The position numbers were made by a program, and so were the translations under genes. Below the pieces are notes generated by a model, which saw nothing but the letters and a program-made list of their open reading frames with translations, did not search any database and was not told the origin of the DNA. A stretch of DNA of 43,477 bases from Candidatus Daviesbacteria bacterium (GTDB taxonomy: Bacteria > Patescibacteriota > Microgenomatia > Daviesbacterales > UBA10151): NCBI GenBank assembly GCA_016187035.1, contig JACPKL010000007.1, positions 1 to 43,477 of the forward strand, given 5' to 3'. Of this stretch, positions 3,121 through 30,012 are shown piece by piece. How positions within the stretch are numbered: the stretch's first letter is position 1; every line of letters starts with the position of its first letter.

Positions 3121-3152
3121 GAGGTTGGAAGCTAACTAACCCCTGGGGTTAA
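3121..3152. repeat. REP-like palindrome, family A (AACCCCTGGGGTT), preceded by a half element
   Basis: GAGGTTGGAAGCTAAC-TAACCCC-T-GGGGTTA; the arm contains the stop codon of ORF 3149..3520. Confidence 0.8.
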
Positions 3153-3520
3153 TGGCTGATAAATCTGTAGTGATTATGTAGATAATAAATGGTGCTACCT
3201 GCTGATCCTAAAATAACCCCTGATAAAATTAAACCATCTTGCACAGACCCTGGTAACTCATTAAATACTTTATGAGCAAACTTCAATCCTTCGACAGCTA
3301 GGTAAGCTCCTCCCCAAGAGGTTAATGCCACAAATCCTGCGGCTGTCAAAACTCCAGCAGTATAAACAATTGGTTTACCTGCCCTCTCTCTTAATCCCCT
3401 AGCGAAATTGGCAGATTGCTGCATAGGATTCTCACATCTGGGATCACCAATTGTAGCTGCATAAAAGGATTCTTCAACTGATAATTGCTCAAGGCCTGGT
3501 CTAGCTTCTACGTTTCTCAT
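3149..3520 (-). CDS. Hypothetical membrane protein
   Basis: 123-aa ORF with two hydrophobic segments; start overlaps the stop of the upstream ORF (TAATG coupling at 3520). Confidence 0.55.
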   Translation of the reverse strand: MRNVEARPGLEQLSVEESFYAATIGDPRCENPMQQSANFARGLRERAGKPIVYTAGVLTAAGFVALTSWGGAYLAVEGLKFAHKVFNELPGSVQDGLILSGVILGSAGSTIYYLHNHYRFISH

Positions 3521-3738
3521 TAGTTCTGTCCCCCTCCTGGGGTTGGGTCTGCTCTTTGGCCAGGTATTAAAGGATTAGGAACCGGGCCGCCTATCCAAAT
3601 ATCAGCTACAAACCCGGTTTTCGGGTTAAGTAACCCTCGTACATCAACACTAACACGAGTTATTCCTCCACCTATCTTTCTTTCTATTCTTTGGCATACT
3701 ACCGAAGCTACCGAAGATCTCTCCCTTTCCACAATCAT
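3520..3738 (-). CDS. Small hypothetical protein
   Basis: 72-aa ORF; TTGACA (3769-3774) and TGn-TATTTT (3745-3750) lie just upstream, with the -10 box 6 nt before ATG. Confidence 0.5.
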   Translation of the reverse strand: MIVERERSSVASVVCQRIERKIGGGITRVSVDVRGLLNPKTGFVADIWIGGPVPNPLIPGQRADPTPGGGQN

Positions 3739-3798
3739 ATTTGCAAAATATCATTATTTTTTCCTTCATGTCAAGAGGTAATTGTAAACCGATAGTTA

Positions 3799-4035
3799 TC
3801 AGTAGTTTTGCCGATACCCAGGGGGTGAAACGGTCCCATCAGAAGATACAACAATTCTTAAACCCTTAGGTGCTCGGGTAACCCAACTCTCATTCGGAAA
3901 AATCAGGCAAGTATTGTCTTGGCTTAATAATTCAACGGTTTTATTTCGAGCAGCAAAACGAATGTAACCCACTTTAACAGGCTCAGTAATGTTTGGATAG
4001 GACACAATATATTCGTTTGGTTCTGATTCTGGCAT
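3799..4035 (-). CDS. Small hypothetical protein
   Basis: 78-aa ORF; perfect TATAAT (4046-4051) 10 nt upstream of ATG. Confidence 0.5.
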   Translation of the reverse strand: MPESEPNEYIVSYPNITEPVKVGYIRFAARNKTVELLSQDNTCLIFPNESWVTRAPKGLRIVVSSDGTVSPPGYRQNY

Positions 4036-4061
4036 AATCCGATAGATTATACTATAAATAG

Positions 4062-5099
4062 TTAATGGTTGTAACCGATGGTGAGCAAGTCTTTATCTAA
4101 TTCTTTAAAAGAAATATTAGCAAGTCTGGTTGCTTCTTTGATGCTTTTAACCCCTCCAATCAGTAGGGGAGCATGAAAAGCATAAACTTTATCAACCACT
4201 TTTGCCTTTATAAAGCTATCTAAGACACTTCTGCCTCCTTCAACTAGCACACTAATAATTTCTTTTTGATAAAGTATATTTAGCAGTTTGGAGACTGCTA
4301 TTTTTTCATCAAAAATAATCACATCAAACCCCATTTCTTGCAGTTTTCCTAACTTGGTCTGATTAGCCAGATTAGTTGTGATGATTAAAACTTGTCTGTC
4401 ACGTAAAACTTTAGCCTGAAGAGGTATTCTAAGAGTAGAATCTAAAATAATTCTAAAAGGATCTTTAAATCCTTTAGTTCTAACTCCCAAATGCGGATCA
4501 TCAACCAAAACAGTGTTAATGCCCACACAAACTCCCTGGTATTGACCTCGCAATGTTCTGGCAAACCTTCTTGACTGCTGATTTGTAATCCACTTTGCAT
4601 CCCCTGTCTCTGTGGCTAGTTTGCCATCCAAAGAAGCTGCAAATTTAATAGCCACAAAAGGTCTTTTCTTTATATGATAAGTAAAAAATGCTTCGTTAAG
4701 CTCTCTTGCCTCCTTTTCCATCACCCCCTCTGTTATCTCAATCCCTGCCTGCTTTAGAGCAGCTATTCCCTGACCAGACACTCTTGGGTTGGGATCAATG
4801 TTTGCACAAATTACTTTACTGATACCTGCTTTAATGATTGCGGGAGCACAAGGCGGGGTTCTGCCAAAATGAACGCATGGCTCCAAATTAACATACAAGG
4901 TTGCCCCTTTGGCATTGCCTTTACATGATTTTAATGCTTCAATTTCTGCATGGGGAAAACCTGCCTTTTTATGATACCCCTCTCCAATAACAGCAGCGTC
5001 TTTTACTATAAGACTTCCCACCATGGGGTTAGGAAAAGTATGTCCCATGCCTTTTTTAGCCAAATTGATGCATTCTCTTAAATAATCTTCATCTTTCAT
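4062..5099 (-). CDS. ribD: Bifunctional riboflavin biosynthesis deaminase/reductase RibD
   Basis: PNPMVG, HAE and PCVHFGRTPPC zinc-deaminase motifs; KFAASLDGK and LVEGG reductase motifs; operon context. Confidence 0.97.
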   Translation of the reverse strand: MKDEDYLRECINLAKKGMGHTFPNPMVGSLIVKDAAVIGEGYHKKAGFPHAEIEALKSCKGNAKGATLYVNLEPCVHFGRTPPCAPAIIKAGISKVICANIDPNPRVSGQGIAALKQAGIEITEGVMEKEARELNEAFFTYHIKKRPFVAIKFAASLDGKLATETGDAKWITNQQSRRFARTLRGQYQGVCVGINTVLVDDPHLGVRTKGFKDPFRIILDSTLRIPLQAKVLRDRQVLIITTNLANQTKLGKLQEMGFDVIIFDEKIAVSKLLNILYQKEIISVLVEGGRSVLDSFIKAKVVDKVYAFHAPLLIGGVKSIKEATRLANISFKELDKDLLTIGYNH

Positions 5100-5101
5100 A
5101 A

Positions 5102-5136
5102 TTTAGCTTGCAACCTCGAAGGTTGCTGCCTAAACT
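5102..5136. repeat. REP-like palindrome, family B (CAACCTCGAAGGTTG)
   Basis: TTTAGCTT-GCAACC-TCGAA-GGTTGC-TGCCTAAACT; overlaps the ribBA stop codon. Confidence 0.9.
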
Positions 5137-6347: not shown

Positions 6348-6348
6348 G

Positions 6349-6777
6349 TTAGATTTTACCGATCAGCTCAATCATTTTTAAAGCAGTCAAAGCTCCTTCT
6401 ACCCCCCTGTTATCTGAAGTACCCTGCGCGCGCTCGATAGCATCTTTCAGGTCATAAACACACAACACTTCAAAAATAACCGGCAGTTCAAACTTGAAAG
6501 ATACATTCATACAGCCCCTGATACACTCATTAGCCACCTGCTCAAAGTGATAAGTTTTCCCTTTTAAAACAGCTCCAAAAACTATAATAGTATTATACTT
6601 ACCTTTTTTGGCTAATTTTTTGGCCACCAAAGGTATTTCCAAGGCTCCGGGTACCCAAAAAATATCTACCAGGCTTTCAGCTACCCCTTTTTCTTTAAGT
6701 GTTTTAAGGCAGTTTTTTACAAGGCTTTTACTTATTTCCAAATGATATCTACTGGCAATAATTGCTAATTTTTTCAT
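6349..6777 (-). CDS. ribH: 6,7-dimethyl-8-ribityllumazine synthase
   Basis: VPGALEIP and GAVLKGKTYHFE motifs; 142 aa; operon context. Confidence 0.96.
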   Translation of the reverse strand: MKKLAIIASRYHLEISKSLVKNCLKTLKEKGVAESLVDIFWVPGALEIPLVAKKLAKKGKYNTIIVFGAVLKGKTYHFEQVANECIRGCMNVSFKFELPVIFEVLCVYDLKDAIERAQGTSDNRGVEGALTALKMIELIGKI

Positions 6778-7349
6778 ATTAGTTTTTCTATATATTTTGC
6801 TAATATATCCACCTCAATATTAACCAAATCTCCTAAGTTCAGCGTGTGGAGCATTGTATTATTCCAGGTAAAGGGAACAATTCCAACAGTAAAAAAATCT
6901 TTTTTAGTGTCAATAACTGTCAAAGAGATCCCGTTTATAGCAATCGAGCCTTTTTCCACAATGTACCTGCTTAAGTTTATAGGCACAGAAAATTCGATGA
7001 TTTTGCCATTTTTGTCTTTGACTGCCCTGACAACCCTAGCTACCCCATCAATATGCCCCTGTATAATATGTCCTGACAGGAAAGTTTTTGGGGTAACAGG
7101 CAATTCCAAATTAACAATGTCATCTTTTTTTAAATTTATTAACATGGTCCTGCTTAATGTTTCAGGCATCACTTCCACAGAAAAACCATTTCTAGTTTTT
7201 CTTAAAACTGTCAAGCAAATACCGTTAACAGCAATGCTTGCACCTTTAGTTAATTTCTTACAAAGCTGGGAAGAAGCAGAGAAGACAAAAATGAACCCAT
7301 CTCTTTTTTCTAATTTTCCTAAGTTGTTGATTATGCCGGTGAACATCAT
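6774..7349 (-). CDS. ribE: Riboflavin synthase alpha chain (start revised from 7361 to ATG at 7349 or 7346)
   Basis: Canonical N-terminus MFTGII; GASIAVNGICLTV and GHIIQGHIDG motifs; the longer ORF start lies inside the riboswitch. Confidence 0.95.
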   Translation of the reverse strand: MMFTGIINNLGKLEKRDGFIFVFSASSQLCKKLTKGASIAVNGICLTVLRKTRNGFSVEVMPETLSRTMLINLKKDDIVNLELPVTPKTFLSGHIIQGHIDGVARVVRAVKDKNGKIIEFSVPINLSRYIVEKGSIAINGISLTVIDTKKDFFTVGIVPFTWNNTMLHTLNLGDLVNIEVDILAKYIEKLI

Positions 7350-7472
7350 TCTCTCTTTCATCCCGACTGTACGGTCGCTGCAGGAGTTTCACCTGCTCAT
7401 CCACGTACCAGACGGTACGCGGTCGTGGAGTTTACCACCGATTAGGATTTTCACCCAAACCCCGAAAGAACA
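7350..7472 (-). ncRNA. FMN riboswitch (RFN element)
   Basis: Minus strand reads TTCTTTCGGGGTTTGGGTGAAAATCCTAATCGGTGGTAAACTCCACGACC...CAGGTGAAACTCCTGCAGCGACCGTACAGTCGGGATGAAAGAGAG, matching RFN hallmarks; directly upstream of the riboflavin operon. Confidence 0.95.
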
Positions 7473-7478
7473 ATTAAT

Positions 7479-7507
7479 ACTATAGCCTTTTTTTGAAAAA
7501 TTATCAA
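7479..7507 (-). promoter_or_regulatory. Sigma70 promoter of the rib operon
   Basis: TTGATA (7507-7502), 17-nt spacer, TATAGT (7484-7479); predicted TSS about 7472 at the riboswitch 5' end. Confidence 0.75.
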
Positions 7508-7508
7508 C

Positions 7509-7556
7509 CAGCTTCCAACCCCAGGGGTTAAATACGTTCAAACCCCAGGAAATAGC
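7509..7556. repeat. REP-like family A elements (about 1.5 copies) downstream of RAYT-1
   Basis: AGCTTCC-AACCCC-A-GGGGTT-AAATACGTTCAAACCCCAGG immediately after the transposase stop codon. Confidence 0.85.
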
Positions 7557-7557
7557 T

Positions 7558-8226
7558 TTATTCTAAGGTTAAATGCTTTATCATTCCCAATTCCCTTTGG
7601 TAATCTGCCTGATTAAACACAAATTCCCTATATTTCTTCTCATTAATAATACCTAAAATTTGCTTAGTATCCACAAAAGGATATCTACCCTCACCTATAT
7701 AATTTAATAAAGATGACCAGGGATAACTTTCTAAATCTTTAATCTCCACTAAATAGCTGGTGGAAGGGTTTAAATGAATATATCTTGAAACATGTAAAAA
7801 CTGTTCTTCTGTAGTGATTCTGACGGTTTTGAACATTGGCTGGAACAAAGGACCGTTTCTAGCAGATTTAGCATTAAAATATTTAGCATAGCTATTCTGT
7901 AAATTACTTATAAATTTAACAATCCCGCGGTCAAGCTTTTGTTTTAGGAGAAAGTGAAAATGATTATCCATCAAGCAAAAAGCTAATATCTCTATATGCA
8001 GATGATTTTCTTTTATTAAATCATCAAAAATTTGTTTTCTTTGCTCTCTTTCTATATTTTTTAATTGAGAAAAACTAACTGGAGTATTCTTAAAACGGTA
8101 GTAATTTATCAAATCCAGGAAACGTAAAAAATCTATTGAGGTTGAAAATATCGGTATCCCTGCAACAGCCCTATTAAACACATGGTAAATTTCTGAAGTG
8201 ACTATGGGAACTTTTCTATATGGCAT
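7558..8226 (-). mobile_element. REP-associated tyrosine transposase (RAYT/TnpA-REP-like, HUH Y1 family), copy 1
   Basis: YHVFNR, FCLMDNHFHFLL (HUH), YAKYFN, RYIHLNP (catalytic Tyr) and YPWSS motifs; family A palindromes on both sides; no tnpB nearby. Confidence 0.9.
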
Positions 8227-8237
8227 AATTCAATTAT

Positions 8238-8283
8238 AACCCTGGGGTTCAAAGCTAATCAACCCCTGGGGTTTGAACGTAAC
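8238..8283. repeat. REP-like family A doublet upstream of RAYT-1
   Basis: AACCCTGGGGTTCAAAGCTAATCAACCCCTGGGGTTTGAACGTAAC; encodes the C-terminus and stop of the adjacent substrate-binding protein. Confidence 0.9.
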
Positions 8284-9661
8284 GAAGAATTTTATCCAGA
8301 AGCTTCTCTGACTTTTTCAGATAAACTATGTTGTATTTGGGGAAATATAAAAAGGTGGCAGGGGCATCTTCCAAAAGACTCTTTTGGAAATCAAAGTACT
8401 TTTGCTGCCTGTCTTCTAAAGTGATAATTTTTCTGCCATCTTCCAAATCTTTATCAGTCCTTTTAGAATCATAACCTGTTAAATTAGTTTTAGTTTGGGT
8501 GGCATGCCACAAAAAGTATTGATCTGGATCCTTAGGAATACTTTGGGTAATCAGTAAAGCTGCAAAATTTTGCGGGATACCAGATTCAATTCGAAGCTTT
8601 ATATCCAATCCTAAATCTTTCCATGAACTTATCACTTTGTTTCCCACTTCCTCTAAATTAGGAGTAGTGGTTAAAATTAGCTCTTCTTTTAGCTTTTCAT
8701 CAGATATAGAAGATTTAGCCCTTTCTAAAGCGCTTTTAGCAAGATCTATATTACCTAGATACTTTTTAGAATCTGGGTTATATGCCCAAAGGAATGAAGG
8801 ATAAGGATTATTAGCTATCTCCTCTGAATCAATTTTAGGAGTTGCATAAGCCAGTGCTTGGCGTAAAGACCTGTTTGAAAGAAGGGGGTTTTTAGTCTGA
8901 AATAAGATAGTTACCATCTTGGAATAATCAGTTTTTTGTTGAAGCTTTGTTTGGGAATTGTTTGAAAAAACTTTTGGATTAGAAATTCCCAGTAAAGCTT
9001 GAACCTCTCCTAAATTAAATCCGGTAATTCCAACTTTTTCATTAGGGTAAAAACGAACATAGATAACAGGCAGCTGGGGGTTAACACTTTTTAAAACAAT
9101 TTTAGTGATAAAGACTCGGGATTTTTCAAGTTTGGCAATTTTATATGGACCCATACCTATCATTGTTCCTCTTTTAATCACAGGCTTAGTTAATAAACTA
9201 GGTAAGGGAGAATATGGCTCTTTTAAGTTAAATTGAATTGTTTTATCATCTGGATAGGACTGTTCCAAACCAGGGATAGCAAAACCTATATCCTTTGATT
9301 TTACTTCTGAATTATCAATCCATCTTAAATTATCTTTAAGTTTAAATTTAAATACAGTTGCATCATTATTAATATCCCAACCAATTACCAGCTTCCCTTT
9401 AACTTTACCGTTCTCATCAGTTTCCACTAAAGGTTGGGAAATCAACTCAGTTACTTCTGCTGGTAGGTCATGCTCCTGGTAAGTACCAATAAACCCAATG
9501 CTAATAGAGTAAGGCTTTGAAAGTAACTTAAACTTAATTTGGGCAAAGAGAACAACTGTTACTATAAAGAAAGATACGCTGAATATTCCTTTGTGTCTTT
9601 TGATAAATTCCAGGGCAATCAAAAACCAAAGCTTAAGATGAGAATTAAATATTTTTTTCAT
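8255..9661 (-). CDS. ABC transporter substrate-binding protein, family 5 (OppA/DppA-like)
   Basis: N-terminal TM anchor; FKFKLKDNLRWID, GMGPYKI, LRQALAYA and PATFLYFP segments typical of SBP family 5. Confidence 0.8.
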   Translation of the reverse strand: MKKIFNSHLKLWFLIALEFIKRHKGIFSVSFFIVTVVLFAQIKFKLLSKPYSISIGFIGTYQEHDLPAEVTELISQPLVETDENGKVKGKLVIGWDINNDATVFKFKLKDNLRWIDNSEVKSKDIGFAIPGLEQSYPDDKTIQFNLKEPYSPLPSLLTKPVIKRGTMIGMGPYKIAKLEKSRVFITKIVLKSVNPQLPVIYVRFYPNEKVGITGFNLGEVQALLGISNPKVFSNNSQTKLQQKTDYSKMVTILFQTKNPLLSNRSLRQALAYATPKIDSEEIANNPYPSFLWAYNPDSKKYLGNIDLAKSALERAKSSISDEKLKEELILTTTPNLEEVGNKVISSWKDLGLDIKLRIESGIPQNFAALLITQSIPKDPDQYFLWHATQTKTNLTGYDSKRTDKDLEDGRKIITLEDRQQKYFDFQKSLLEDAPATFLYFPKYNIVYLKKSEKLLDKILRYVQTPGVD

Positions 9662-9663
9662 TC

Positions 9664-9879
9664 TCAGAGTAAGAGGCCGATTAAGGAAAAAATTATAAAG
9701 ACTGATGATAAAACAATAGTTGTGTAAAACAAAAGCTTCTCGGCTCCTCTTTTAGATCTATAAAAATTAAAACTCCCTCCAAAAGCAGCTCCTATTCCAG
9801 ATCCTTTTTGCTGGATAATAATTACTAAAATAAGCAAGACAGCTAAAATAATCTGAATTAAGTAAATAACTGATTTCAT
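9664..9879 (-). CDS. secG: Preprotein translocase subunit SecG
   Basis: Two TM helices with QQKGSGIGAAFGG and RSKRGAEK motifs. Confidence 0.9.
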   Translation of the reverse strand: MKSVIYLIQIILAVLLILVIIIQQKGSGIGAAFGGSFNFYRSKRGAEKLLFYTTIVLSSVFIIFSLIGLLL

Positions 9880-9898
9880 GTCTCTATTCTAACACAAT

Positions 9899-10300
9899 TT
9901 AATGAGCTAGCCACTGAAGGAAATGGGTAATAATACCTATCATGAAAGAGGCTACTACTGCTACCCAAAAAGTACTTAACCCTATAGCAGGAAGAGAGAT
10001 ACCAAAAAAATTTGCTCCTGGAAAATTATAAGGCAGCAGCTGAAAATCAGATATTATGGTAGTTAAGGCAAACAAAGCTAAAACATTAATAATCCAAGCA
10101 AATAATCCTAATGTTAATAAGTTAAGTGGTAAAAATAATATTTTCAAAAGTGGGACCAAAATAAAATTGATCAGCATAAAAGCAACTGCCCCAATCAGTA
10201 AACTCTTAATTCCCCCTGTATAGGTTAACCCTGGCAAATATCTTGTGGTGGCATAAAGGGAAACCAAATTTATGAGAAAATACCTTAGCAGAGTCTTCAT
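9899..10300 (-). CDS. 4-TM phage-holin-family (YvlD/DUF360-like) membrane protein
   Basis: PLNLLTLGLFAWIINVLAL signature; 133 aa hydrophobic. Confidence 0.85.
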   Translation of the reverse strand: MKTLLRYFLINLVSLYATTRYLPGLTYTGGIKSLLIGAVAFMLINFILVPLLKILFLPLNLLTLGLFAWIINVLALFALTTIISDFQLLPYNFPGANFFGISLPAIGLSTFWVAVVASFMIGIITHFLQWLAH

Positions 10301-11604
10301 CCTAATATTCTATCACGTAATTTTCTGTGATAGGAAATGGCAAATCTGTGGGATTCATCACGGAGTTTTTGCAGCAGCCTTAAAGATAAACTGCTCTTGG
10401 GTAATTTGATAATTTTACCTTCGGCAGGATAAAGCCACTCCCTTTTTTTGGCAAGACCAAAAACAGGAATTTGAAAATTGAAAATTGAAAATTGAAAATT
10501 TACTACTCTAGCCTGTCCCCTACCCCCATCTACTATTATTAGATCAGGGAATTGCCATTCTGTATGTTTTAACCTTCTTTTTATCATTTCTCTATGCATT
10601 CCTACATCATCTGGCCTGCCAGAAATTCTTATTTTAAATTTTCTATACTGGGATTTATCAATCTCACCAGCAATTATCACTACCATTGATCCTACCGCAT
10701 CTTTTCCGCCAATATTAGATATATCATAACCTTCAATTCTTCCAGGTAATTTATCTAAATTTAAATCTTTTTGTAGCTGCTTTAAAGCTAATTTATTTTC
10801 TTCTTCTAAAAAGTTAGGATTTTCTAAGTAAGCCTGGGCCCTATTAGTTTGAGTAAGATAAGAAATTCCATCTAACATTTTTTTTACTTGAGCAGCTTTT
10901 TCAAACTGCTGAGTCTTTGATAACTCCATCATTTCTTTTGATAATCCTGATACCAACTCTTCCTTTTTCCCTTCTAAGAATTTAGAGAATCTTTTGATAA
11001 TCTTGCTATATTCTTCTTTATTAATCATTCCTGTACACAAACCAGGGCACAATCCTAAATGATAATAGAAACAAGCTCTATGTTTAGCCTGCCCCGTACC
11101 ATACGATACTGGAGCCTGCAACCTCGAAGGTTGCAGCGTGAATTTGGGAGGGTTGCTACACCAGGGAAAAACCCTTCTAAGTTGCTTCAGAGTATTCCTT
11201 ACTGTCCTGGATGAAGGAAAAGGGCCAAAAAACTTTTTAACTGTTTTTAAATCTTTTTTCCTGATCGTGACTACTTTAGGAAACTGTTCATTTGATATAC
11301 CAATATAAAGAAAGTCTTTATCATCAGTTAATCTGATATTAAAAGGCGGAAGGTGTTTTTTAATCAAGTTAGCCTCCAGAATTAGGGCCTCTAATTCTGA
11401 TTCAGTAATATAGGTTTCAACTGAGGATATATTGGATACTAAGGCAGCAGTTCTACCATCAACATTACGGTTAAAATATGAGGAGACACGGTGATATAAA
11501 TTAATAGCTTTTCCAACATACAAAATATCTTCTTGGCTGCTTTTAAATATATAAACCCCACTTTTTTTGGGTAATTTTTCCTTGTTTAAAAAGGAAGGAA
11601 TCAT
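10297..11604 (-). CDS. uvrC: Excinuclease ABC subunit C (short form, no obvious C-terminal HhH)
   Basis: GIY-YIG region (GVYIF, LYVGKA), RIEGYDISN, PDLIIVDGGRGQ and RDESHRFA motifs. Confidence 0.95.
   Translation of the reverse strand: MIPSFLNKEKLPKKSGVYIFKSSQEDILYVGKAINLYHRVSSYFNRNVDGRTAALVSNISSVETYITESELEALILEANLIKKHLPPFNIRLTDDKDFLYIGISNEQFPKVVTIRKKDLKTVKKFFGPFPSSRTVRNTLKQLRRVFPWCSNPPKFTLQPSRLQAPVSYGTGQAKHRACFYYHLGLCPGLCTGMINKEEYSKIIKRFSKFLEGKKEELVSGLSKEMMELSKTQQFEKAAQVKKMLDGISYLTQTNRAQAYLENPNFLEEENKLALKQLQKDLNLDKLPGRIEGYDISNIGGKDAVGSMVVIIAGEIDKSQYRKFKIRISGRPDDVGMHREMIKRRLKHTEWQFPDLIIVDGGRGQARVVNFQFSIFNFQIPVFGLAKKREWLYPAEGKIIKLPKSSLSLRLLQKLRDESHRFAISYHRKLRDRILG
10471..10500. repeat. Heptamer tandem repeat (TTGAAAA)x4 inside uvrC
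   Basis: Four perfect 7-bp units; encodes NFQFSIFNFQ. Confidence 0.9.
11082..11144. repeat. Composite 63-nt family B element in frame within uvrC, containing a nested 27-nt insert
   Basis: GTTTAGCCTG-[CCCCGTACCATACGATACTGGAGCCTG]-CAACCTCGAAGGTTGCAGCGTGAATT; AGCCTG duplicated at 11086-11091 and 11113-11118. Confidence 0.85.
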
Positions 11605-11628
11605 AAGGGAAGTATTTTACTAAATTTT

Positions 11629-13524
11629 TTACCTTTTTGCTTTAACTGAAGCTTTGGCTTTGTAGATATGAGTCCCTAAAATAATAAAATAAATTATTCC
11701 CATAAGAGCAACAATACCAATGGTAATAAAGGGAAAGGTTTGAAAAATAATAAATGGTTGTACTTTTATGTCTTTGGAAAATTTCTGGCTACCAATTAAG
11801 ACAGTTATTGTATCATTAAATCTATCAAATAAAGTTTTTGTTCTGATATTAAAATCAAAAGTAGACTCACCAAAGGCTGGGATTGGACCTAAAATTTGGC
11901 TTTCTCCTCCCAGAACAATTAATTTATTGCTTTTAACTATTAAATCATCTGATGGATAAAAAGCATTACCTACATTAGAAATTTTAACTTTGATTTTTCC
12001 GGGAAATCCTGCCAAAAATGGATTGGGGCTGTCTATTTTAACATCTAAAAGAGGCGTTCCCAAAAAGTCATTTTCTGATAGGTTAACTTTAACATCACGG
12101 GTATCCTGGTTTTCAAACTTATATGAACCTGCTGGAATAGGAGATTCAGAAGAACTTCCCCTGGTAACAAAAACAAAATGGTTTAGGTCAAATTTATTAA
12201 AATAATCAACTCCCCCAGAGGTGTTCTCCCAGGTTGGATCAACCATTACCCAACCTTTTTTATCATCCCAATACTGCGGCCAGGAATGTAAAATGTCTTT
12301 TGTAAAAGAAAGAGGACGCAGGGTGGTGTTGGTGGTATAGGCATAACCATCAAGCTCTCTGGCTGGAATATTTGCAGCACGGGCAAAAGCTATAAACAAA
12401 TCAGTAAATTCCATACAAACTGCAGAATCTGGATTGTTTAACGCTGTAACTGCCCCTAACCTTTCTATATTATCCTTAAGTCTGCCTGAATCATACTTGA
12501 GAGTGTTTACTACATATTGATAAATTAATTTAACTTTATCTTCTTCTTTGGCATCAGCTAAAATTTCTTTAAGCTTAGCTTGAATTTGTGGATGGTCTTT
12601 TTCCCAATATTTAGCTGGCTGGGTATATTTTTTCCTTAAATTATTATCTAAGTTAGGTCTTTTAACTTTACTTATGGTGTATAGTTTAGAGGAACCGATC
12701 AGTTTAACATCCAATTTTTCATTTCTGTTTAATTTATACCAAGCTAAATAATTACCATCATCATCAACAGTTACATTTAAAGGTTTAGGCTCAAAACGTT
12801 GGTAAATAACATCTTGGTAAGCTGTATCTGGAGGTAGAGCAATGTTGGTTAAAATAGGTACTAAATTATTATTTTCTAAATGATAGGTCAGGTTAAAATC
12901 AAATAGCTGATTGGTGCCAAAACTAGCTGAAACTCCAGATTGTTCAAGTTGGTCTTTGTTAAAAGTTAAAAATATTTTACCACCTGATTTGGATTGAGTT
13001 TTAGGGGTAGGGGAGATGGCAGTTGGCTCACCAAATTCTACAGGGACAGAAATAGTCAGGTTATAATCTAATAAATTTTCAGAAGAAACTTTGGGAGCTC
13101 TTATCTCCCAGACCTTTCCTAAATTCTGGGCAAAATCTTTAGATTTAAATTGAAGAGTCCAGGGTAAAACTTTGTTTATACCTGCTACCTGCTGATTAAA
13201 TTTAACTGAAATAATGGTTGAGGTATTTTTTTGCTCAGGGGTAACTTGCATAATCCCTCCCCCATCAGAAGCTTTAATATCAGAAATTTGGGTTGCACCA
13301 ATAATTAACTTAAATTGATTAGCATAATATTCTGAGGTCAGGTTTGTTAAATTAATTTTTTCAGTAACTGTGGTAATACCTGATTGATCTATGTCATACA
13401 AAACATTATAAGAGGTGGCAAATTCCTCAGCAGCATAAACAGTAGACAAAGTGCAGGTTACAGTGAGCAGGAAGAACAAGATACTGTAAACTAAAACCTG
13501 TAACCTGAAGCCTCTTTTAAACAT
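11629..13524 (-). CDS. Transglutaminase-like domain membrane protein
   Basis: Catalytic-triad motifs CMEFTDLF, HSWPQYW and VDPTW; signal peptide and C-terminal TM helix. Confidence 0.9.
   Translation of the reverse strand: MFKRGFRLQVLVYSILFFLLTVTCTLSTVYAAEEFATSYNVLYDIDQSGITTVTEKINLTNLTSEYYANQFKLIIGATQISDIKASDGGGIMQVTPEQKNTSTIISVKFNQQVAGINKVLPWTLQFKSKDFAQNLGKVWEIRAPKVSSENLLDYNLTISVPVEFGEPTAISPTPKTQSKSGGKIFLTFNKDQLEQSGVSASFGTNQLFDFNLTYHLENNNLVPILTNIALPPDTAYQDVIYQRFEPKPLNVTVDDDGNYLAWYKLNRNEKLDVKLIGSSKLYTISKVKRPNLDNNLRKKYTQPAKYWEKDHPQIQAKLKEILADAKEEDKVKLIYQYVVNTLKYDSGRLKDNIERLGAVTALNNPDSAVCMEFTDLFIAFARAANIPARELDGYAYTTNTTLRPLSFTKDILHSWPQYWDDKKGWVMVDPTWENTSGGVDYFNKFDLNHFVFVTRGSSSESPIPAGSYKFENQDTRDVKVNLSENDFLGTPLLDVKIDSPNPFLAGFPGKIKVKISNVGNAFYPSDDLIVKSNKLIVLGGESQILGPIPAFGESTFDFNIRTKTLFDRFNDTITVLIGSQKFSKDIKVQPFIIFQTFPFITIGIVALMGIIYFIILGTHIYKAKASVKAKR
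13440..13507. repeat. Two degenerate heptamer-period tracts in the signal-peptide region of the transglutaminase-like gene
   Basis: CAGTAGA CAAAGTG CAGGTTA CAGTGAG CAG (13440-13470) and CTGTAAA CTAAAAC CTGTAAC CTG (13484-13507). Confidence 0.6.
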
Positions 13525-13567
13525 TCATAATATTGTAGCAAAAACAAACCTGGGAAGCTAATCTAGA

Positions 13568-13604
13568 AGTTTAGCTTGCAACCTCGAAGGTTGTATCGTA
13601 AACT
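13568..13604. repeat. REP-like family B element upstream of RAYT-2; doubles as a putative promoter
   Basis: AGTTTAGCTTG-CAACC-TCGAA-GGTTG-TATCGTAAACT; TTGCAA (13576-81), 17 nt, TAAACT (13599-604), 6 nt, ATG. Confidence 0.9.
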
Positions 13605-13610
13605 AAAATT

Positions 13611-14264
13611 ATGCCAGGAAGAATAATTCCGCTAGTAACTGGAGAGTTTTATCATATTTATAATCGAGGCAGTGAAAAAAGGGATATTTTTACTCAATCA
13701 AGGGATTATCGCAGATTTCAAAAAACCTTTTACTACTACCAATTCTTAGGTCCTAAACCAAGTTTCTCTAAATTTTCAAAACCCGACTTGAATTCTTTCA
13801 AAGCTAATCCTGATAAGAAAATTGTTGATGTGATATGTTACGCTCTTATGCCAAACCATTTCCATTTCCTGCTTCGCCAGCTTAAAGAAAATGGAATTTC
13901 AATATTTTTGAGTCAACTTTCAAATAGCTACACAAAATACTTCAATACTAAATATAAAAGAGTAGGACCTCTCCTTCAGGGAGCATTCAAAGCAGTCCTT
14001 ATAGAATCAGAGGAACAACTAATACACTTATCCCGTTATATCCACCTTAATCCAGTAGTTTCTGGGCTGACTAAAAATTTAGGTAGTTACCATTGGTCTT
14101 CTTATACAGAATATATGAGTGGTCAGACATTATACTGCTCTCCGGAAGAAATCCTTAGTCTTTATCCAACTGTCAAAAATTATCAGAAATTTGTAGAAGC
14201 TCAAATAGAGTATGGTACTACTTTGGAAATACTAAAACATAGAATAATAGCTGAAGATATCTAA
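13611..14264 (+). mobile_element. REP-associated tyrosine transposase (RAYT/TnpA-REP-like, HUH Y1 family), copy 2
   Basis: YHIYNRG, YALMPNHFHFLL (HUH), YTKYFN, RYIHLNP and YHWSSY motifs; family B palindromes on both sides. Confidence 0.9.
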
Positions 14265-14269
14265 AATTC

Positions 14270-14330
14270 GTGCGTCAACCTCGAAGGCCTTCGGCCGTGA
14301 GCCTCAGGCCGAATCGGTTGCAGGCTAAAT
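14270..14330. repeat. Family B element downstream of RAYT-2, interrupted by a 30-nt hairpin
   Basis: GCGTCAACCTCGAAGG-[CCTTCGGCCGTGAGCCTCAGGCCGAATCGG]-TTGCAGGCTAAAT. Confidence 0.85.
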
Positions 14331-14352
14331 ATAGGTGTAAACATAAATATTA

Positions 14353-14628
14353 TTATAATTGTTCAGGCCTATCTCTAAAGACTATATAGCAATGACTATC
14401 GATATTATATCTAGCCTGACTAGTATCAATGGATCCTTCACTTAATTGCCTTTGGACTTTTGGAACGTATCTCCTAAAATCTTCTTCTAATTTGGCTAAT
14501 ATGTGCAGACCTCTTCTTAATCTCCACCTGTACTCATTAGGTGCTCCCCACCTAGGTGGATCTGTTCGTCTATGGCTAGTGACATCGATTTTGTTAAGTT
14601 TTACTAAAATTTCCACTACATTACCCAT
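14353..14628 (-). CDS. Small hypothetical protein
   Basis: 91-aa ORF; extended -10 TGA-TAGAAT (14636-14641) 7 nt before ATG. Confidence 0.55.
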   Translation of the reverse strand: MGNVVEILVKLNKIDVTSHRRTDPPRWGAPNEYRWRLRRGLHILAKLEEDFRRYVPKVQRQLSEGSIDTSQARYNIDSHCYIVFRDRPEQL

Positions 14629-18241: not shown

Positions 18242-18260
18242 TCCTACCTCCGAGGTAGGA
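18242..18260. repeat. Perfect short palindrome TCCTACCTCCGAGGTAGGA (REP-like, TCCYAC subfamily)
   Basis: 8-bp stem with CCG loop; related to the hairpin at 21636-21652. Confidence 0.7.
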
Positions 18261-20852: not shown

Positions 20853-20890
20853 TTGTAGCCTGCAACCTCGAAGGTTGCAGCGTAAACTAA
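20853..20890. repeat. REP-like family B element between uvrB and the pilin-like gene
   Basis: TTGTAGC-CTGCAACC-TCGAA-GGTTGCAG-CGTAAACTAA. Confidence 0.9.
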
Positions 20891-21677: not shown

Positions 21678-21715
21678 AGTTTGTGCGGTAACCTTCGAGG
21701 TTGCAGTGTGTAAAT
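21678..21715 (-). repeat. REP-like family B element in reverse orientation
   Basis: AGTTTGTGCGGT-AACC-TTCGA-GGTT-GCAGTGTGTAAAT. Confidence 0.8.
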
Positions 21716-22484: not shown

Positions 22485-22485
22485 G

Positions 22486-23119: not shown

Positions 23120-23195
23120 AATTTAGTTGTATTGTATTGTAAACCACTCTGTCAAGGATTGTATAAGAAAAAGTTAACTGGTATACTATTTTTTT

Positions 23196-23843: not shown

Positions 23844-23848
23844 GCAAT

Positions 23849-24592
23849 ATGTTATATATCATCCCAACCCCTATTGGTAATCTAAAAGATATTACTTTAA
23901 GGGCATTGGAGGTTTTACAAAGCGTTGATGGAATTGTTTGTGAAGATACCAGAAGAACTGCCCAGCTTCTTACCCACTACCAAATCAAAAAAAACCTGCT
24001 TGTTTTAAATGATTATAATGAAACAAAAATTTTCCCACAGATAATTGAGAGATTAAAAACCGAAGAGAACTTAGCTTTAGTCTCTGACGCAGGTACTCCA
24101 CTTATTTCTGATCCAGGATATAAACTGATCAGGGAATGTATCAGGGAAGGAATTATGATTGACTCACTTCCTGGACCATCTTCTGTGGTTACAGCTTTAA
24201 CACTCTCAGGGTTACCACCTGATAAATTTTTCTTTTTAGGCTACCCACCAGAGAAAGGTGGACAAAGAATAAAACTCTTCCAAAGTTTGTGCGTCAACCT
24301 GGAAGGTTGCAACGTAAATCCGGCGCCAGATAGGTGCTGGGTAAACTTGGGAACTATTGTAATGTTTGTCTCACCCTATAAGCTAATGAGAACTTTAGAA
24401 GATTTACAAAAAGTCTTTGGGGATATTGATGTTGTTCTAGCTCATGAATTAACTAAAATCCACCAAAGCGTGGAAAGTAAATTAATCAGCCAGTGGCTTA
24501 AGGATTTAAAATATCCAAAGGGAGAATATGTTCTGCTTTTCAGGCTAACCCCTGGGGTTCAAAGCTATTCAACCCCTGGGGTTGGAACGTAA
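23849..24592 (+). CDS. rsmI: 16S rRNA (cytidine-1402-2'-O)-methyltransferase RsmI, carrying REP-derived insertions
   Basis: LYIIPTPIGNLKDIT, CEDTR, LVSDAGTPLISDPG and ELTKIH motifs. Confidence 0.93.
   Translation: MLYIIPTPIGNLKDITLRALEVLQSVDGIVCEDTRRTAQLLTHYQIKKNLLVLNDYNETKIFPQIIERLKTEENLALVSDAGTPLISDPGYKLIRECIREGIMIDSLPGPSSVVTALTLSGLPPDKFFFLGYPPEKGGQRIKLFQSLCVNLEGCNVNPAPDRCWVNLGTIVMFVSPYKLMRTLEDLQKVFGDIDVVLAHELTKIHQSVESKLISQWLKDLKYPKGEYVLLFRLTPGVQSYSTPGVGT
24283..24348. repeat. 66-nt in-frame tandem of two REP-like hairpins inside rsmI
   Basis: AAGTTTGTGCGT-CAACC-TGGAA-GGTTG-CAACGTAAAT followed by CCGGCGCC-AGATA-GGTGCTGG-GTAAACTT; encodes about SLCVNLEGCNVNPAPDRCWVNL. Confidence 0.85.
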
Positions 24593-24594
24593 AA
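24545..24594. repeat. REP-like family A doublet at a convergent gene junction
   Basis: CTAACCCCTGGGGTTCAAAGCTATTCAACCCCTGGGGTTGGAACGTAAAA; near-identical to 8238-8283. Confidence 0.92.
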
Positions 24595-26562: not shown

Positions 26563-26583
26563 CTAATTTCAGTTTACCATAAC

Positions 26584-27177
26584 CTAACATCTTCCCCAGA
26601 GTCCCTTTTTAAACTGTCTTGCTTCTTTTTCTGCTTGTAAAAATTGTTCATTATATTTTACATCTGGAGGATATGTATAAACTTTAGCAAAACCTTCCCT
26701 AACTAAATAATCATTAACAAAAAGCAAGCTGCCATCCTCTAAAGAAAGAAAAACTAATCTTAATAATCTGCCATATTTATCAGTCTCTGAAACATCTTTT
26801 TGAAGATAAACCACCTTACCTGTTAACAGGCTTTTAGTCTCATTTGAGGCCTCTTTACCAAAACAGCCAACAGGTCTTCTTGGATCAACAGTTTCAGGAG
26901 TATCTATACCTATCAGCCTGACAGTTTTTTCTCCATTTACTTTAATAGTATCTCCATCAACTACCTGGGTAACCAGGGCTTTCTCCCCTTCTATTCCTAA
27001 AGCAGAAGAAGAGGTGGCCTCAACAGAAGGTCTAGGGGAATTTGAGGCTAAATCCTGAGGTTCAAAGCTATTCAACCCCTGGGGTTGAAAGCTAAGTTGT
27101 GAAAACCAAAGTAGTCCAAAACCTAAAGTTATTATTAAAATACTGGTAAAAGTTAAGAATTTAGTATTAGAAAACAT
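26584..27177 (-). CDS. Membrane-anchored thermonuclease (SNase-like)
   Basis: VVDGDTI, VRLIGIDTPE, DKYGRLL and KGLWG motifs. Confidence 0.93.
   Translation of the reverse strand: MFSNTKFLTFTSILIITLGFGLLWFSQLSFQPQGLNSFEPQDLASNSPRPSVEATSSSALGIEGEKALVTQVVDGDTIKVNGEKTVRLIGIDTPETVDPRRPVGCFGKEASNETKSLLTGKVVYLQKDVSETDKYGRLLRLVFLSLEDGSLLFVNDYLVREGFAKVYTYPPDVKYNEQFLQAEKEARQFKKGLWGRC
27048..27096. repeat. REP-like family A doublet in frame in the nuclease linker
   Basis: CTAAATCCTGAGGTTCAAAGCTATTCAACCCCTGGGGTTGAAAGCTAAG; encodes LSFQPQGLNSFEPQDL. Confidence 0.88.
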
Positions 27178-28133
27178 TAGTTGCTAAAATTTTGGGTAAA
27201 CATCATCCCATATGTTCCCCCATCCATGACACCAATACCAATCCTCCCGTAATCCTGGGATAAAATATTTGCCCTATGGCCTTCTGAATTCATCAAACCT
27301 TTATGTGCTGCCTCCAATGAAGGGGCATAAGCTAAATTCTCACCAATCACTGAAAAATCCACCTCAGCCTCTGCTGCCCTATCAGCTACAGTTTTTCCCT
27401 CAGGTGAATAATGGGAAAAATAACCTCTTTTAAACATATCAGTACTGTGGGACCTTCCAACCCCTCTTAATTTTTCATCAAATGCTAATGCTTTTAAACC
27501 TATTTTAGTTCTTTCCCCATTAACTAGACTAACCATACCTCTCTCTGCTTCCTCATCAACCTTAAACTCTGTGGTTTGAAATCCTAAATTAATCTTTTGG
27601 TCTGTTTTAGGCTTGATAGTTAAAAAAGTCAAGCTGTCATTGCTAATTCCTCCAAAGATATTTTTTACTGGCTGTTCTAAAGCATAAGCATTTTTTAAAA
27701 TCTGGCTGCCTAAATTAGAATTTAAAACTGCTTTTTTAATAACAGGCTGGATAGGAAAAGTTGCTATCATTACTAAAATAAACGCTGTAAAAATTAAACC
27801 CCTAAGTATTGCCGGAATAATTGATAAATAGTCAAGGTGGGTAAATTTAAGTTTTGGAAGCTTAGGTAAAAATATTCTGATTAGCAGGAAAAAGATTATC
27901 TCTGATAAAAACCACACAACCATGAAACCTAACACCAAAGATAAACCATGAGGAATTTTAAATTGGGTTTCAATTAGTTTTGCCTGTAAATTATAGTAGC
28001 TAAAAGACAGGATAAAAGCCAGTAAAAAAGAGGTAAAATCCAAAGTTTCCAAAACTAAAGAGTGAGTTAAAGATTCTAAAGCAAACAGGATTAAAATAAT
28101 GATTATAACTAAATCCACCCAATTAGCTTGCAC
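27177..28133 (-). CDS. CvpA-family membrane domain fused to a CAP (SCP-like) domain
   Basis: N-terminal CvpA-like TM region; HSTDMFKRGYFSH, GENLA and LMNSEGHRANIL CAP motifs; GTG start 6 nt after TATAAT. Confidence 0.88.
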   Translation of the reverse strand: MQANWVDLVIIIILILFALESLTHSLVLETLDFTSFLLAFILSFSYYNLQAKLIETQFKIPHGLSLVLGFMVVWFLSEIIFFLLIRIFLPKLPKLKFTHLDYLSIIPAILRGLIFTAFILVMIATFPIQPVIKKAVLNSNLGSQILKNAYALEQPVKNIFGGISNDSLTFLTIKPKTDQKINLGFQTTEFKVDEEAERGMVSLVNGERTKIGLKALAFDEKLRGVGRSHSTDMFKRGYFSHYSPEGKTVADRAAEAEVDFSVIGENLAYAPSLEAAHKGLMNSEGHRANILSQDYGRIGIGVMDGGTYGMMFTQNFSN

Positions 28134-28147
28134 ATGCTAATTATACC

Positions 28148-29920
28148 CTAAAATAAATCTGATTTACGGATCCTGATGCTTTTGGGGGTTACTTCCACAA
28201 GCTCAGTATCATTGATATATTCTAAAGAGTCCTCCAGATCCATATATTTTGGGGTATCAAAATGTTCAGAAGTTCCTTCCCCTGATGAACGGTGGTTGGT
28301 TTGGGCTTTTTCCTTGCAAACATTAACGCTGATATCATTAGACCTGGCATTTGCCCCAATTACCTGCCCTTTATAAACAGCAACACCTGGTCCTAAAAAT
28401 AAAGTCCCTCTGTCCTGGACTCCTATTAATCCGTATAACTTGGTGGTTCCATTTTCATGGACAACCAAAGAACCGTTCTCTCTGGTAAAAAATGTATCAT
28501 TATCTTTATTAAACTCATAAAAATTAGTATTAATTATTCCCAAACCTTTGGTATCAGTAATAAATTCACCTCTATAACCTAAAAGCTCTTTAGTGGCAAT
28601 AATAAACTCCAAAGATACAATGCCCTCGCTGTTTGACATATCCTGAAATTTTGCATGCCTTAAACCCATTTTCTGCATTACCACTCCCTGGTACTCCTGC
28701 GGGATTTCTATATAAACTTTTTCATAAGGGGTTAAAGTTTTACCATTTTCAATTTTTTCGATAACTTGGGGCCTGGATACCTGGAATTCATAGCCTTCCC
28801 GTCTCATCCTTTCAATTAAAATTGCCAGATGCAGTTCACCCCTGCCTGAAACAGTCCAGCCTCCCGGAGTATTTTCCACTTTTAAAGCCACGTCATCTTC
28901 CATTGCTTTCATTAATCTTTCCTGAATCTGACGGGATGTTTTAAATTTTCCTTCTATTCCTGCAAAAGGAGAAGTATTTACTTCAAAAGTTATCTTAATG
29001 GTAGGCTCCTCAATAGCTAAAAGAGGCAAGGCAGGGGTATCTAGGCAGTCAGTGATTGTTTCCCCGATCGTGATATCCGGTACTCCGGAAATAGCAGCTA
29101 TGTCTCCGCTTAAAACTTCTGAGCGTTCAACTTTTTCCAGACCTTCAAAGGTAATCAGACCGGTTAAACGGAATTTATTTTTTAACCCGTCCCTTTGGAT
29201 ATGAATAATTTCCTCATTTTTATTTATTTTACCGTTAATAATCCTGCCTGTGGCTATCCTGCCTTTGAAATTATCAAAGATAACGGAAGTAATCAGCATC
29301 TGTAAAGGCTTATCAGGATTACCCTGGGGAGGTGGGATGTGTTTTAAAATTGCCTCAAAAATTGGTGTGATATCTTTCATAAGACTTAGGTCAGGGTTTT
29401 CCCCGGCCAGTCCAAGCTTGGCAGAGGAGTAGACAACAGGAAAATAGGCAGCAGATTCATCTGCACCCAAATCCAGGAATAAATCAAAAGTTTTATCTAT
29501 CACATAATTTACCCTGGCATCAGGACAGTCAATTTTATTAATAACAACAATAATTTTAAGGCCCATTTTAAGAGCCTGTTTTAAAACAAACCTGGTTTGA
29601 GGCATCGGCCCTTCTTTAGCATCAACCAGCAGCAAGCAGCCATCTACCAGCTTTAACACTCTTTCCACTTCCCCTCCAAAATCTGCATGGCCAGGGGTAT
29701 CAACAATATTAATTTTGGTATCCTGGTATTTAACTGAGGCATTTTTGGAAAAAATAGTGATTCCCCTTTCTTTCTCAAGTTCATTGCTGTCCATAATTAA
29801 AGAAGAATCAGATAACTGCTTACTTAACTTGGTTTGGGTTTGTCTGAGCAGGGCATCTACTAAAGTAGTTTTGCCGTGGTCAACATGAGCAATAATAGCC
29901 ACATTTCTTAAATTATTCAT
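28148..29920 (-). CDS. typA: Translational GTPase TypA/BipA
   Basis: AHVDHGKTT, ERGITI, DTPGHADFGGEVER and GRGELHLAILIERMRREGYE motifs. Confidence 0.97.
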   Translation of the reverse strand: MNNLRNVAIIAHVDHGKTTLVDALLRQTQTKLSKQLSDSSLIMDSNELEKERGITIFSKNASVKYQDTKINIVDTPGHADFGGEVERVLKLVDGCLLLVDAKEGPMPQTRFVLKQALKMGLKIIVVINKIDCPDARVNYVIDKTFDLFLDLGADESAAYFPVVYSSAKLGLAGENPDLSLMKDITPIFEAILKHIPPPQGNPDKPLQMLITSVIFDNFKGRIATGRIINGKINKNEEIIHIQRDGLKNKFRLTGLITFEGLEKVERSEVLSGDIAAISGVPDITIGETITDCLDTPALPLLAIEEPTIKITFEVNTSPFAGIEGKFKTSRQIQERLMKAMEDDVALKVENTPGGWTVSGRGELHLAILIERMRREGYEFQVSRPQVIEKIENGKTLTPYEKVYIEIPQEYQGVVMQKMGLRHAKFQDMSNSEGIVSLEFIIATKELLGYRGEFITDTKGLGIINTNFYEFNKDNDTFFTRENGSLVVHENGTTKLYGLIGVQDRGTLFLGPGVAVYKGQVIGANARSNDISVNVCKEKAQTNHRSSGEGTSEHFDTPKYMDLEDSLEYINDTELVEVTPKSIRIRKSDLF

Positions 29921-29963
29921 GACAGGATATTATACAGGAAATCTCCCCAAACTGCCAGTATTT

Positions 29964-30012
29964 GGGTGTGAAGCTAATACCTTAACACACCCTTAGGGTG
30001 TGTATCGTATCT
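29964..30012. repeat. REP-like family E elements between typA and pflA
   Basis: GGGTGTGAAGCTAATACCTTA-ACACACCC-TTA-GGGTGTGT-ATCGTATCTA; perfect 8-bp stem at 29985-30003. Confidence 0.85.

Follow-up and report, generated by a model that had tools for sequence, protein, structure and literature searches.

Hairpin repeat families paired with RAYT-like genes in Candidatus Daviesbacteria: a probable REP/RAYT-type system in the candidate phyla radiation

The pairing of repetitive extragenic palindromes (REPs) with REP-associated tyrosine transposases (RAYTs) is the most thoroughly studied case in which a "domesticated" transposase sustains a population of tiny repeats, and nearly all knowledge of it is proteobacterial. 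Here we report the analysis of a 43-kb contig, hereafter the window, from Candidatus Daviesbacteria, a groundwater bacterium of the Microgenomates within the candidate phyla radiation (CPR), whose tiny genome is available as an assembly of 13 contigs (1.04 Mb in total, 84.6% complete), the window being contig C4. It contains two RAYT genes, RAYT-A and RAYT-B, each enclosed by palindromes of its own hairpin family, as well as scattered copies of both families and members of others whose cognate genes lie on different contigs. The window very probably holds two of six "REPtron/TIRtron" units that together make up a multi-family REP/RAYT-type system, whose DNA cutting and mobility we infer from its anatomy and distribution.

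RAYT genes of the window and the palindromes that enclose them

The two genes lie on opposite strands, each between two units that are inverted relative to one another and that combine a family-specific hairpin with a short conserved motif, the foot:

7558-8226, minus strand: RAYT-A gene, 222 amino acids (aa), HUH/Y1 enzyme (Pfam Y1_Tnp, NCBIfam, alignment, AlphaFold2 model)
8233-8281, plus strand: REP-A doublet upstream of RAYT-A, with degenerate unit 8237-8249, foot CAAAGCTA, perfect hairpin 8261-8273 and foot TGAACGTA
7509-7553, minus strand: REP-A doublet downstream of RAYT-A, inverted relative to the upstream doublet, with perfect hairpin 7517-7529 and degenerate unit 7541-7553
13611-14264, plus strand: RAYT-B gene, 217 aa, 42% identical to RAYT-A
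13570-13604, plus strand: REP-B unit upstream of RAYT-B, with foot TTAGCTTG, hairpin 13579-13593 and TATCGTAAACT
14270-14328, plus strand: long B variant (59 nt) downstream of RAYT-B, a B stem that contains a nested GGCC hairpin, in inverse orientation to the upstream unit

The two gene products are HUH/Y1 enzymes. Both open reading frames (ORFs) match Pfam Y1_Tnp, RAYT-A with 38.9 bits, and in an alignment of 30 homologues the HUH residues H89/H91, as well as Y149, N153 and a WSS serine, are invariant. The AlphaFold2 model of RAYT-A built from this alignment (mean pLDDT 91.7) has as its top fold match in the Protein Data Bank 4er8, the E. coli TnpA-REP enzyme with a REP hairpin, followed by the TnpA proteins of IS608 and ISDra2. 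The motifs of these proteins, which are 215-222 aa long, are NHFH/NHYH/NHIH, LFQ/LLQ (FQ/LQ), YIHLNP and WSS; judged by motifs only, they fit the group described in turn as TIRYT (Di Nocera 2013), Group 1 RAYT (Bertels 2017) and TnpAY1 subclass 2.1 (Quentin 2018). Neither window RAYT has a TnpB-size ORF beside it, the neighbours being an SBP5 gene, whose stop codon is provided by the upstream REP-A doublet (8233-8281), a flavin mononucleotide (FMN) riboswitch and unrelated ORFs.

The first-pass annotation of this DNA had described about 20 elements in 27 kb, with one hairpin family bracketing RAYT-A and a second one bracketing RAYT-B. Both statements are borne out, as we found 15 main hairpins and about five degenerate partner units, A doublets at 8237-8281 and 7509-7553 around RAYT-A, and B elements at 13570-13604 and 14270-14328 around RAYT-B. 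The hairpins lie within a few bases of the positions given there, the element at 24545 being resolved as a doublet (24547/24571) and that at 27048 as the degenerate partner (27050-27062) of the perfect A copy at 27074. Family A (AACCCCTGGGGTT) occurs with at most one mismatch at 3138, 7517, 8261, 24547, 24571 and 27074, that is, at six loci against 0.04 expected from shuffles of the window. Family B (CAACCTCGAAGGTTG) is likewise present at six loci (0.00 expected), exactly at 5111, 11119, 13579 and 20863; the copies at 21689 (minus strand) and 24295 each have one mismatch. Enrichment extends to the whole genome, as the annotation had predicted: the 13-mer AACCCCWGGGGTT has 18 perfect copies against about 0.01 expected by our own estimate from base composition. 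Among the further stems that had been placed in the same superfamily, C is a true family, found in the window at 16144 and 29985-30001; stems D (21636) and E (24320) are real, but each is unique in the 1.04-Mb genome, and they are therefore not repeat families. The hairpin at 18242-18260, which had appeared related by its stem, is a solo member of family F.

Gene-repeat pairing and the shared foot

The genome encodes six RAYT-like genes, the paralogues being 38-49% identical to RAYT-A, and all six have a flanking repeat of their own, representing five hairpin families (A, B, C, F and I) and one inverted-repeat family:

C4:7558: RAYT-A, flanked by repeat A
C4:13611: RAYT-B, flanked by repeat B
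C1:240497: RAYT-C, flanked by repeat C (CACCCTWAGGGTG)
C10:69373: RAYT-F, flanked by repeat F (CTACCTCSGAGGTAG)
C1:14324: RAYT-I, flanked by repeat I (CCACCCTTGGGGTGG)
C1:228661-229308: sixth RAYT-like gene, with inverted GGGGACGGTCCT repeats at its flanks and four further copies within 42 kb (C1:211284-252986)

The one-to-one pairing of genes with stem families, proposed from the two window loci, thus holds for six genes out of six, and the suggestion of a multi-channel REP/RAYT system in a CPR-like genome is supported. The palindromes bracket their genes in inverted orientation, with the exception of RAYT-C, which has two hairpins in direct orientation. Each hairpin family is represented by about 3 to 19 loci genome-wide, and copies are concentrated near their own gene, with 6 of 13 B loci and 6 of 19 A loci on the 43-kb contig C4, 7 of 13 F loci on C10, and all six copies of the sixth family within 42 kb.

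The units of family A have a foot 5' of each hairpin, in the layout TTACGT-tca-AACCCCAGGGGTT-ga-TTAGCT-ttg-AACCCCAGGaat, so that a perfect hairpin is followed by a foot and a degenerate second hairpin; the same order is found in families C and F. Family B has one hairpin only, and each strand bears a foot (TTAGCYTG ... CAGCGTAA). The foot reads TTAGC(T/C) or TTACG(T/C/A) and stands 2-4 nt off the stem. TAGC or TACG is present within 12 nt of 39 of the 53 hairpins (74%), compared with 13.5% of random positions and 7.5% of unrelated GC-rich hairpins, and the shared foot beside family-specific stems is thus statistically real. Paralogues in five further genomes of the class conserve it as well. 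The annotation had recognized this constant element, which stands, and had counted two different feet on the two sides of the hairpin, which does not: in both cases the motif is TTA(GC/CG)N, which appears on opposite strands or in successive units. The mispairs in degenerate A units are 28 G-T and only 2 A-C, and one strand therefore folds better than the other. No consistent rule relates unit orientation to the local GC skew or to the majority gene strand: C1, C5 and C10 behave alike, and C4 departs from them. When all 623 GC-rich hairpins were scanned for flanking tetranucleotides, chance hairpins dominated and the result was uninformative.

Upstream of RAYT genes the foot falls within a promoter-like arrangement. 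Among 32 RAYT genes, taken from this genome and from related Microgenomates, 23 are preceded by a match to TAGCTTGAC with at most two mismatches, which at most loci ends 29-34 nt ahead of the start codon. When 24 of the 32 upstream regions are aligned on TTGACA, this hexamer is 96-100% conserved per position; 17 nt past it follow -10 positions with T at 71%, A at 75%, three variable nucleotides and T at 83%, and the start codon comes 6-8 nt further on. On this cross-locus alignment, the foot upstream of most RAYT genes appears to be the -35 box of a predicted sigma-70 promoter, TTGACA-N17-TAnnnT, whose spacer is the degenerate hairpin and which would yield a leaderless RAYT mRNA. RAYT-B has TTGCAA (13576-13581) as its -35 box, a 17-nt spacer and TAAACT (13599-13604) as its -10 box, with the ATG 6 nt further, and RAYT-A has a promoter-like site TTGATT-18-TATAAT on the minus strand (8262-8233). 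The prediction is based on this alignment and not on a sigma-70 consensus scan, which found 27 sites in 7400-14400 against 26.3 in shuffles and hence no excess.

Of 41 genomes of the class, 31 encode homologues of these enzymes, a single genome having as many as 13 divergent copies. Matches at E <= 1e-10 number at least 1432 protein clusters; their public name is only "transposase", and a cluster nearly always represents one contig and one member. By our own count of about 70 homologous loci from CPR and other phyla, the gene at most of them lies between copies of the same palindrome. Stems follow the RAYT phylogeny: in a maximum-likelihood tree, AACCCC stems are common to RAYT-A and its 60-78% identical relatives (support 100/97), xxACCT stems with a cga or gaa loop to the RAYT-B clade (97/92), and CCACCC/CACCCC stems to the RAYT-I clade (98/90). 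The neighbourhood of SBP5 and RAYT-A is retained at two loci of related genomes (L001 and L003), where the RAYT is 69-78% identical. Because this neighbour is kept in both relatives, RAYT-A behaves as a resident gene and not as a hopping insertion sequence.

Dispersed copies, reading frames and independent insertions

The other copies in the window are as follows:

3114-3152, plus strand: dispersed REP-A unit at the 3' end of ORF 3149-3520
24547-24591, plus strand: dispersed REP-A doublet with two perfect hairpins, between convergent genes
27050-27094, plus strand: REP-A doublet read in frame within the N-terminal part (residues 31-43) of a staphylococcal-nuclease homologue encoded on the minus strand (26584-27177)
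5103-5135, plus strand: dispersed REP-B unit, intergenic, foot on both strands
11111-11142, plus strand: in-frame REP-B unit within uvrC (10297-11604, minus strand)
20855-20886, plus strand: dispersed REP-B unit, intergenic, with GTAGCCTG foot
21680-21712, minus strand: dispersed REP-B unit, intergenic, one mismatch
24286-24340, plus strand: REP-B unit (one mismatch) and stem E, inside rsmI (23849-24592)
16142-16166, plus strand: in-frame REP-C unit within uvrA (14660-17572, minus strand)
29965-30008, plus strand: dispersed REP-C doublet, intergenic, half-site GGTGTGAAGCTA and hairpin 29985-30001; cognate RAYT-C on contig C1
18242-18260, plus strand: solo REP-F hairpin; cognate RAYT-F on contig C10
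21636-21657, plus strand: stem D with AGCTA after it, present once in the genome

Stem D is possibly a relic unit, and CCACAT stems flank RAYTs in two relatives (G005 and G039).

Across the genome, 58 hairpin loci were classified by means of a rough ORF map, in which coding sequence is over-called (93% coding). On this map, 28 of them lie in the approximately 7% of the genome that is non-coding, an enrichment of about 7-fold; nine lie at gene 3' ends, where the TAA or TAG of the foot closes the reading frame, and about ten are truly internal and in frame. The A doublet at 24547-24591 encodes the last codons and the stops of both rsmI and a phosphoenolpyruvate-utiliser-like gene. In uvrC, the REP-B hairpin corresponds to residues 158-162, within a loop whose length ranges over 3-28 residues among orthologues, and the closest orthologue has no insert. 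The REP-C unit of uvrA adds six residues, ASHPKG, relative to Geobacillus UvrA (2r6f), and REP-B with stem E encodes about 16 extra residues in RsmI compared with the E. coli protein. Outside the window, internal copies were found in dinB, a gatA-like amidase gene, murT and the gene of a Wzy-type ligase. The dinB (Pol IV) homologue, C10:45859-47148, carries two in-frame units, one of family H (described below) near residue 120 and one of family F near residue 315.

The same loops are occupied by other repeats in related genomes. In G001, the uvrC loop (L087) holds a doublet of that genome's own REP, CAATCCsGGATTG with AGCT feet, which flanks its RAYT L109, and the loops of G008 (L088) and G012 (L090) hold other palindromes. 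Overall, differing palindromic inserts between FPWC and CFYYH were seen in at least four genera, and the uvrC loop is a hot spot of recurrent insertion or of tolerance. The uvrA loop that contains REP-C here holds a GTCATTGCGAGCGAAGCGA-type repeat in G005 (L128) and G008 (L126), encoding the peptide VIASEAKQS. The long B variant (59 nt) that lies downstream of RAYT-B recurs at C10:79135-79193, in a copy that is 96.6% identical and has unrelated flanks. These three cases, the long B twin, the uvrC loop and the uvrA loop, point to independent insertion events. A 30-mer from uvrC had no match among metagenome contigs.

Several further observations concern the repeats and their surroundings. A hairpin family H (CACCTYSRAGGTG), laid out as the window families with the foot GGCTTTGA or an A-rich spacer, occurs at 25 loci on C5, C6, C8, C9 and C10 (e.g., C5:20600-20639, C5:39295-39334 and C6:9825), of which 21 lie within long ORFs, one coding a 4510-aa protein. 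A small family, ACACCTGGAAGGTGT followed by CAAGCTA (reverse complement TAGCTTGACACC), is found at C1:3837, C1:5868 and C8:146658 with no adjoining RAYT. Contig C8 terminates within a REP-A doublet (C8:176086-176127), and REP units are probably behind some of the assembly breaks. An Rfam scan of the window found no family for the hairpins, its sole match being the FMN riboswitch (RF00050, 88 bits) at 7346-7473 on the minus strand, which lies directly downstream of RAYT-A's downstream REP and precedes riboflavin-type ORFs 6774-7361 and 6349-6777. The window contains no tRNAs.

Mechanism, known systems and alternative explanations

The concept of several REP families with a constant foot and variable stems, each served by its own RAYT, is not new: it is the established model of proteobacterial REPtrons (PMC6006769, PMC8266576). 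What appears to be new is the host group, the CPR, and the enzyme subclass, the latter as assigned by motifs only; a full-text literature search found no paper on REP/RAYT in CPR bacteria. The REPtrons of E. coli (4er8), Pseudomonas fluorescens SBW25, Stenotrophomonas maltophilia and Marinomonas share with the Daviesbacteria units a single-copy HUH/Y1 gene inside inverted, dispersed and mostly extragenic palindromes, several RAYTs per genome each with its own REP family, and a short conserved motif beside a variable hairpin. REP ends also supply stop codons there, and intragenic REPs favour excision-repair genes (Di Nocera et al., PMC3733652), so that stop-codon donation and in-frame copies, notably in uvrA and other repair genes, are common to both (PMC6006769, PMC3733652, PMC8266576). 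The two differ in the foot, which is GT[AG]G in REPtrons and TAGC(TTGA) or TACG, 2-4 nt from the stem, in Daviesbacteria; in copy number, which runs to hundreds in REPtrons and to tens, clustered near the parent gene, in Daviesbacteria; and in the arrangement of doublets, which are inverted REPIN-type pairs in the former and tandem units (perfect hairpin, foot, degenerate hairpin) in the latter. Moreover, the protein motifs NHFH, FQ/LQ, YIHLNP and WSS differ from those of subclasses 2.2 and 2.5, and the host is a CPR bacterium.

With subclass 2.1, or TIRYT, the enzymes share NH[YF]H, FQ, Y[IV]HLNP, an SS tail and a length of about 220-240 aa (published median 238, here 215-222). As in TIRtrons, inverted repeats flank the gene at a fixed distance, repeat abundance is moderate, and repeats are sometimes self-complementary and in dimers; flanking 16-mers with about 12 occurrences were described for Group 1 RAYTs (Bertels et al.). 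The TIRtron motif GGGGWSAS is matched here only approximately, by GGGGACGGTCCT at the sixth paralogue, by GGTGTCAA or GGGGTTCA at the others, and also by GGGGACGG. Subclass 2.1 reportedly lacks REP-like hairpins, and no REP-like sequences were found for it (Quentin et al.), whereas five of the six paralogues here have a dispersed GC-rich hairpin with a foot. The IS200/IS605 elements IS608 and ISDra2, whose enzymes were the second-best structural matches, have the same HUH/Y1 fold and presumably share recognition of a sub-terminal single-stranded DNA (ssDNA) hairpin, with a guide motif beside it that sets the cleavage site. They differ in being near-identical multi-copy elements with Y---Q and often tnpB, which is absent here, where the Y motif is of class 2 and the multiplied entity is a short hairpin unit and not the gene. 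Rickettsia palindromic elements and intragenic REPs are likewise short palindromes in frame in loops of conserved proteins; the units described here belong to families whose cognate enzyme gene can be identified within the genome itself, and most copies are extragenic.

The data show how the units are built, that they pair with genes and are enriched, which fold the enzyme is predicted to adopt, that stems co-vary with RAYT phylogeny and that some insertions are independent; from these observations we infer the following mechanism. Each unit is a single-copy, vertically inherited gene of an HUH/Y1 ssDNA enzyme between inverted composite elements, each with a family-specific perfect hairpin outermost, a conserved foot (TAGCTTGA or TACG-type) and a degenerate hairpin copy beside the gene. 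By analogy with the TnpA-REP enzymes of E. coli, Stenotrophomonas and Marinomonas (PMC8266576), each enzyme would bind the folded hairpin of its own family on one strand, stem and loop conferring specificity among paralogues and the adjacent foot serving as guide or cleavage context. The enzyme would then cut and rejoin ssDNA, copying short units or doublets of 20-60 nt to new sites, where they would persist mainly just past stop codons or in frame in tolerant protein loops and would build up chiefly at sites no more than tens of kb away from the parent gene. In front of most RAYTs the foot may double as the -35 box from which a leaderless mRNA is made.

A number of results weigh against this reading. 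The NCBIfam model REP_Tyr_transpos scores 47.1 and 51.6 bits for the two window RAYTs, under its cut-off of 80, and sequence similarity to 4er8 is weak (E = 0.03). The copy numbers of about 3-19 loci per family are far under those of classical REPs (>100). The canonical GT[AG]G foot is absent, GTAGCC occurring only once, at 20855. The exact 8-mer TAGCTTGA has 51 copies genome-wide, within the range of its permutations and hence not enriched, so that the foot is meaningful only beside hairpins, and a promoter role could account in part for its conservation near genes. This assembly, which is 85% complete, contains no RAYT gene for family H or for the small CACCTGGAAGGTGT family. Two families of the complete genome G005 are limited to 1-2 copies besides those that flank the gene, and the extent of family spread thus differs between genomes. 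Finally, no contig on record encodes the exact RAYT-A, and no near-identical strain was found.

The alternative closest to the proposed mechanism accepts the anatomy and assigns the foot to transcription: it would be kept as the RAYT promoter and not read by the enzyme, and the dispersed copies would carry it as passive baggage. The TTGACA alignment of 24 of 32 upstream regions, with its 17-nt spacing and a start codon 6-8 nt past the -10 box, and the lack of genome-wide enrichment of the exact TAGCTTGA 8-mer both favour such an account. We nevertheless consider it doubtful, since the foot is also present in the inverted downstream copies and by dispersed hairpins that face no gene (e.g., 5103-5135), where it takes the TACG form without resemblance to a -35 box; family A lacks TTGACA yet retains TAGCT/TACGT, and in characterized REPtrons the enzyme reads the conserved motif beside the hairpin (PMC8266576). 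The two roles of the foot are compatible with each other. Less probable still, and on the whole unlikely, is that the units are autonomous IS200-like elements, selfish and horizontally transferred, in which the gene and its hairpin ends move together and the short copies are debris resembling miniature inverted-repeat elements. The name of the Pfam family ("Transposase IS200 like"), the public annotation as "transposase" only, the up to 13 copies per 1-Mb genome in relatives and the standing of Group 1 as the most IS-like RAYT group (PMC5581495) all point that way. Against it, the genome has no near-identical copies, the paralogues being 38-49% identical to RAYT-A; the Y motif is YIHLNP, of class 2 and RAYT type, and not Y---Q (PMC6006769, Table 1); SBP5 is still the chromosomal neighbour of RAYT-A in genomes whose RAYT is 69-78% identical; no TnpB-size ORF adjoins either window gene; and protein clusters almost always have a single contig and a single member.

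It is very improbable that the hairpins are host terminators or mRNA-stabilizing stem-loops that lie near transposase genes by coincidence, even though many copies stand just past stop codons, a terminator-like scan picks up one A hairpin, and REPs elsewhere stabilize mRNA (PMC3733652). They have no T-runs, and terminator-like sites number 5 against 5.1 expected; identical 13-15-mers recur at unrelated loci and in frame within genes; all six RAYT genes are bracketed by their own family, with stems that track the RAYT tree; the strand stabilized by G-T pairs is, as judged by eye, antisense to the upstream gene in four of five A copies at 3' ends; and no Rfam family matches the hairpins. A secondary host role acquired after insertion is compatible with these data. 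Chance palindromes were considered and rejected, with about none expected in shuffles against six A and six B loci.

The preferred reading, a multi-family REP/RAYT-type system, places REPtron logic in a streamlined 1-Mb CPR genome, with an enzyme subclass reported as REP-less and a different foot. Six related enzymes with six distinct but related substrates and one shared foot would offer a natural specificity panel for the reading of hairpin and foot by Y1 enzymes. For the annotation of CPR genomes, the units matter in that they create stop codons, add 6-20 residues to UvrA, UvrC and RsmI, and likely break assemblies. More tentatively, Microgenomates, and probably the CPR widely, may hold a large undescribed radiation of subclass-2.1-like, REP-mobilizing Y1 enzymes, with up to 13 divergent paralogues per 1-Mb genome locked to their stems, a foot that doubles as a promoter for leaderless mRNA, mainly local copying, and repeated colonization of the same surface loops in proteins of nucleotide-excision and translesion repair (UvrA, UvrC and DinB), the last three traits setting it apart from proteobacterial REPtrons. 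If so, every copied unit would carry half a promoter, and the colonization of the UvrA, UvrC and DinB loops would hint at a mechanistic link between REP insertion and repair-associated ssDNA.

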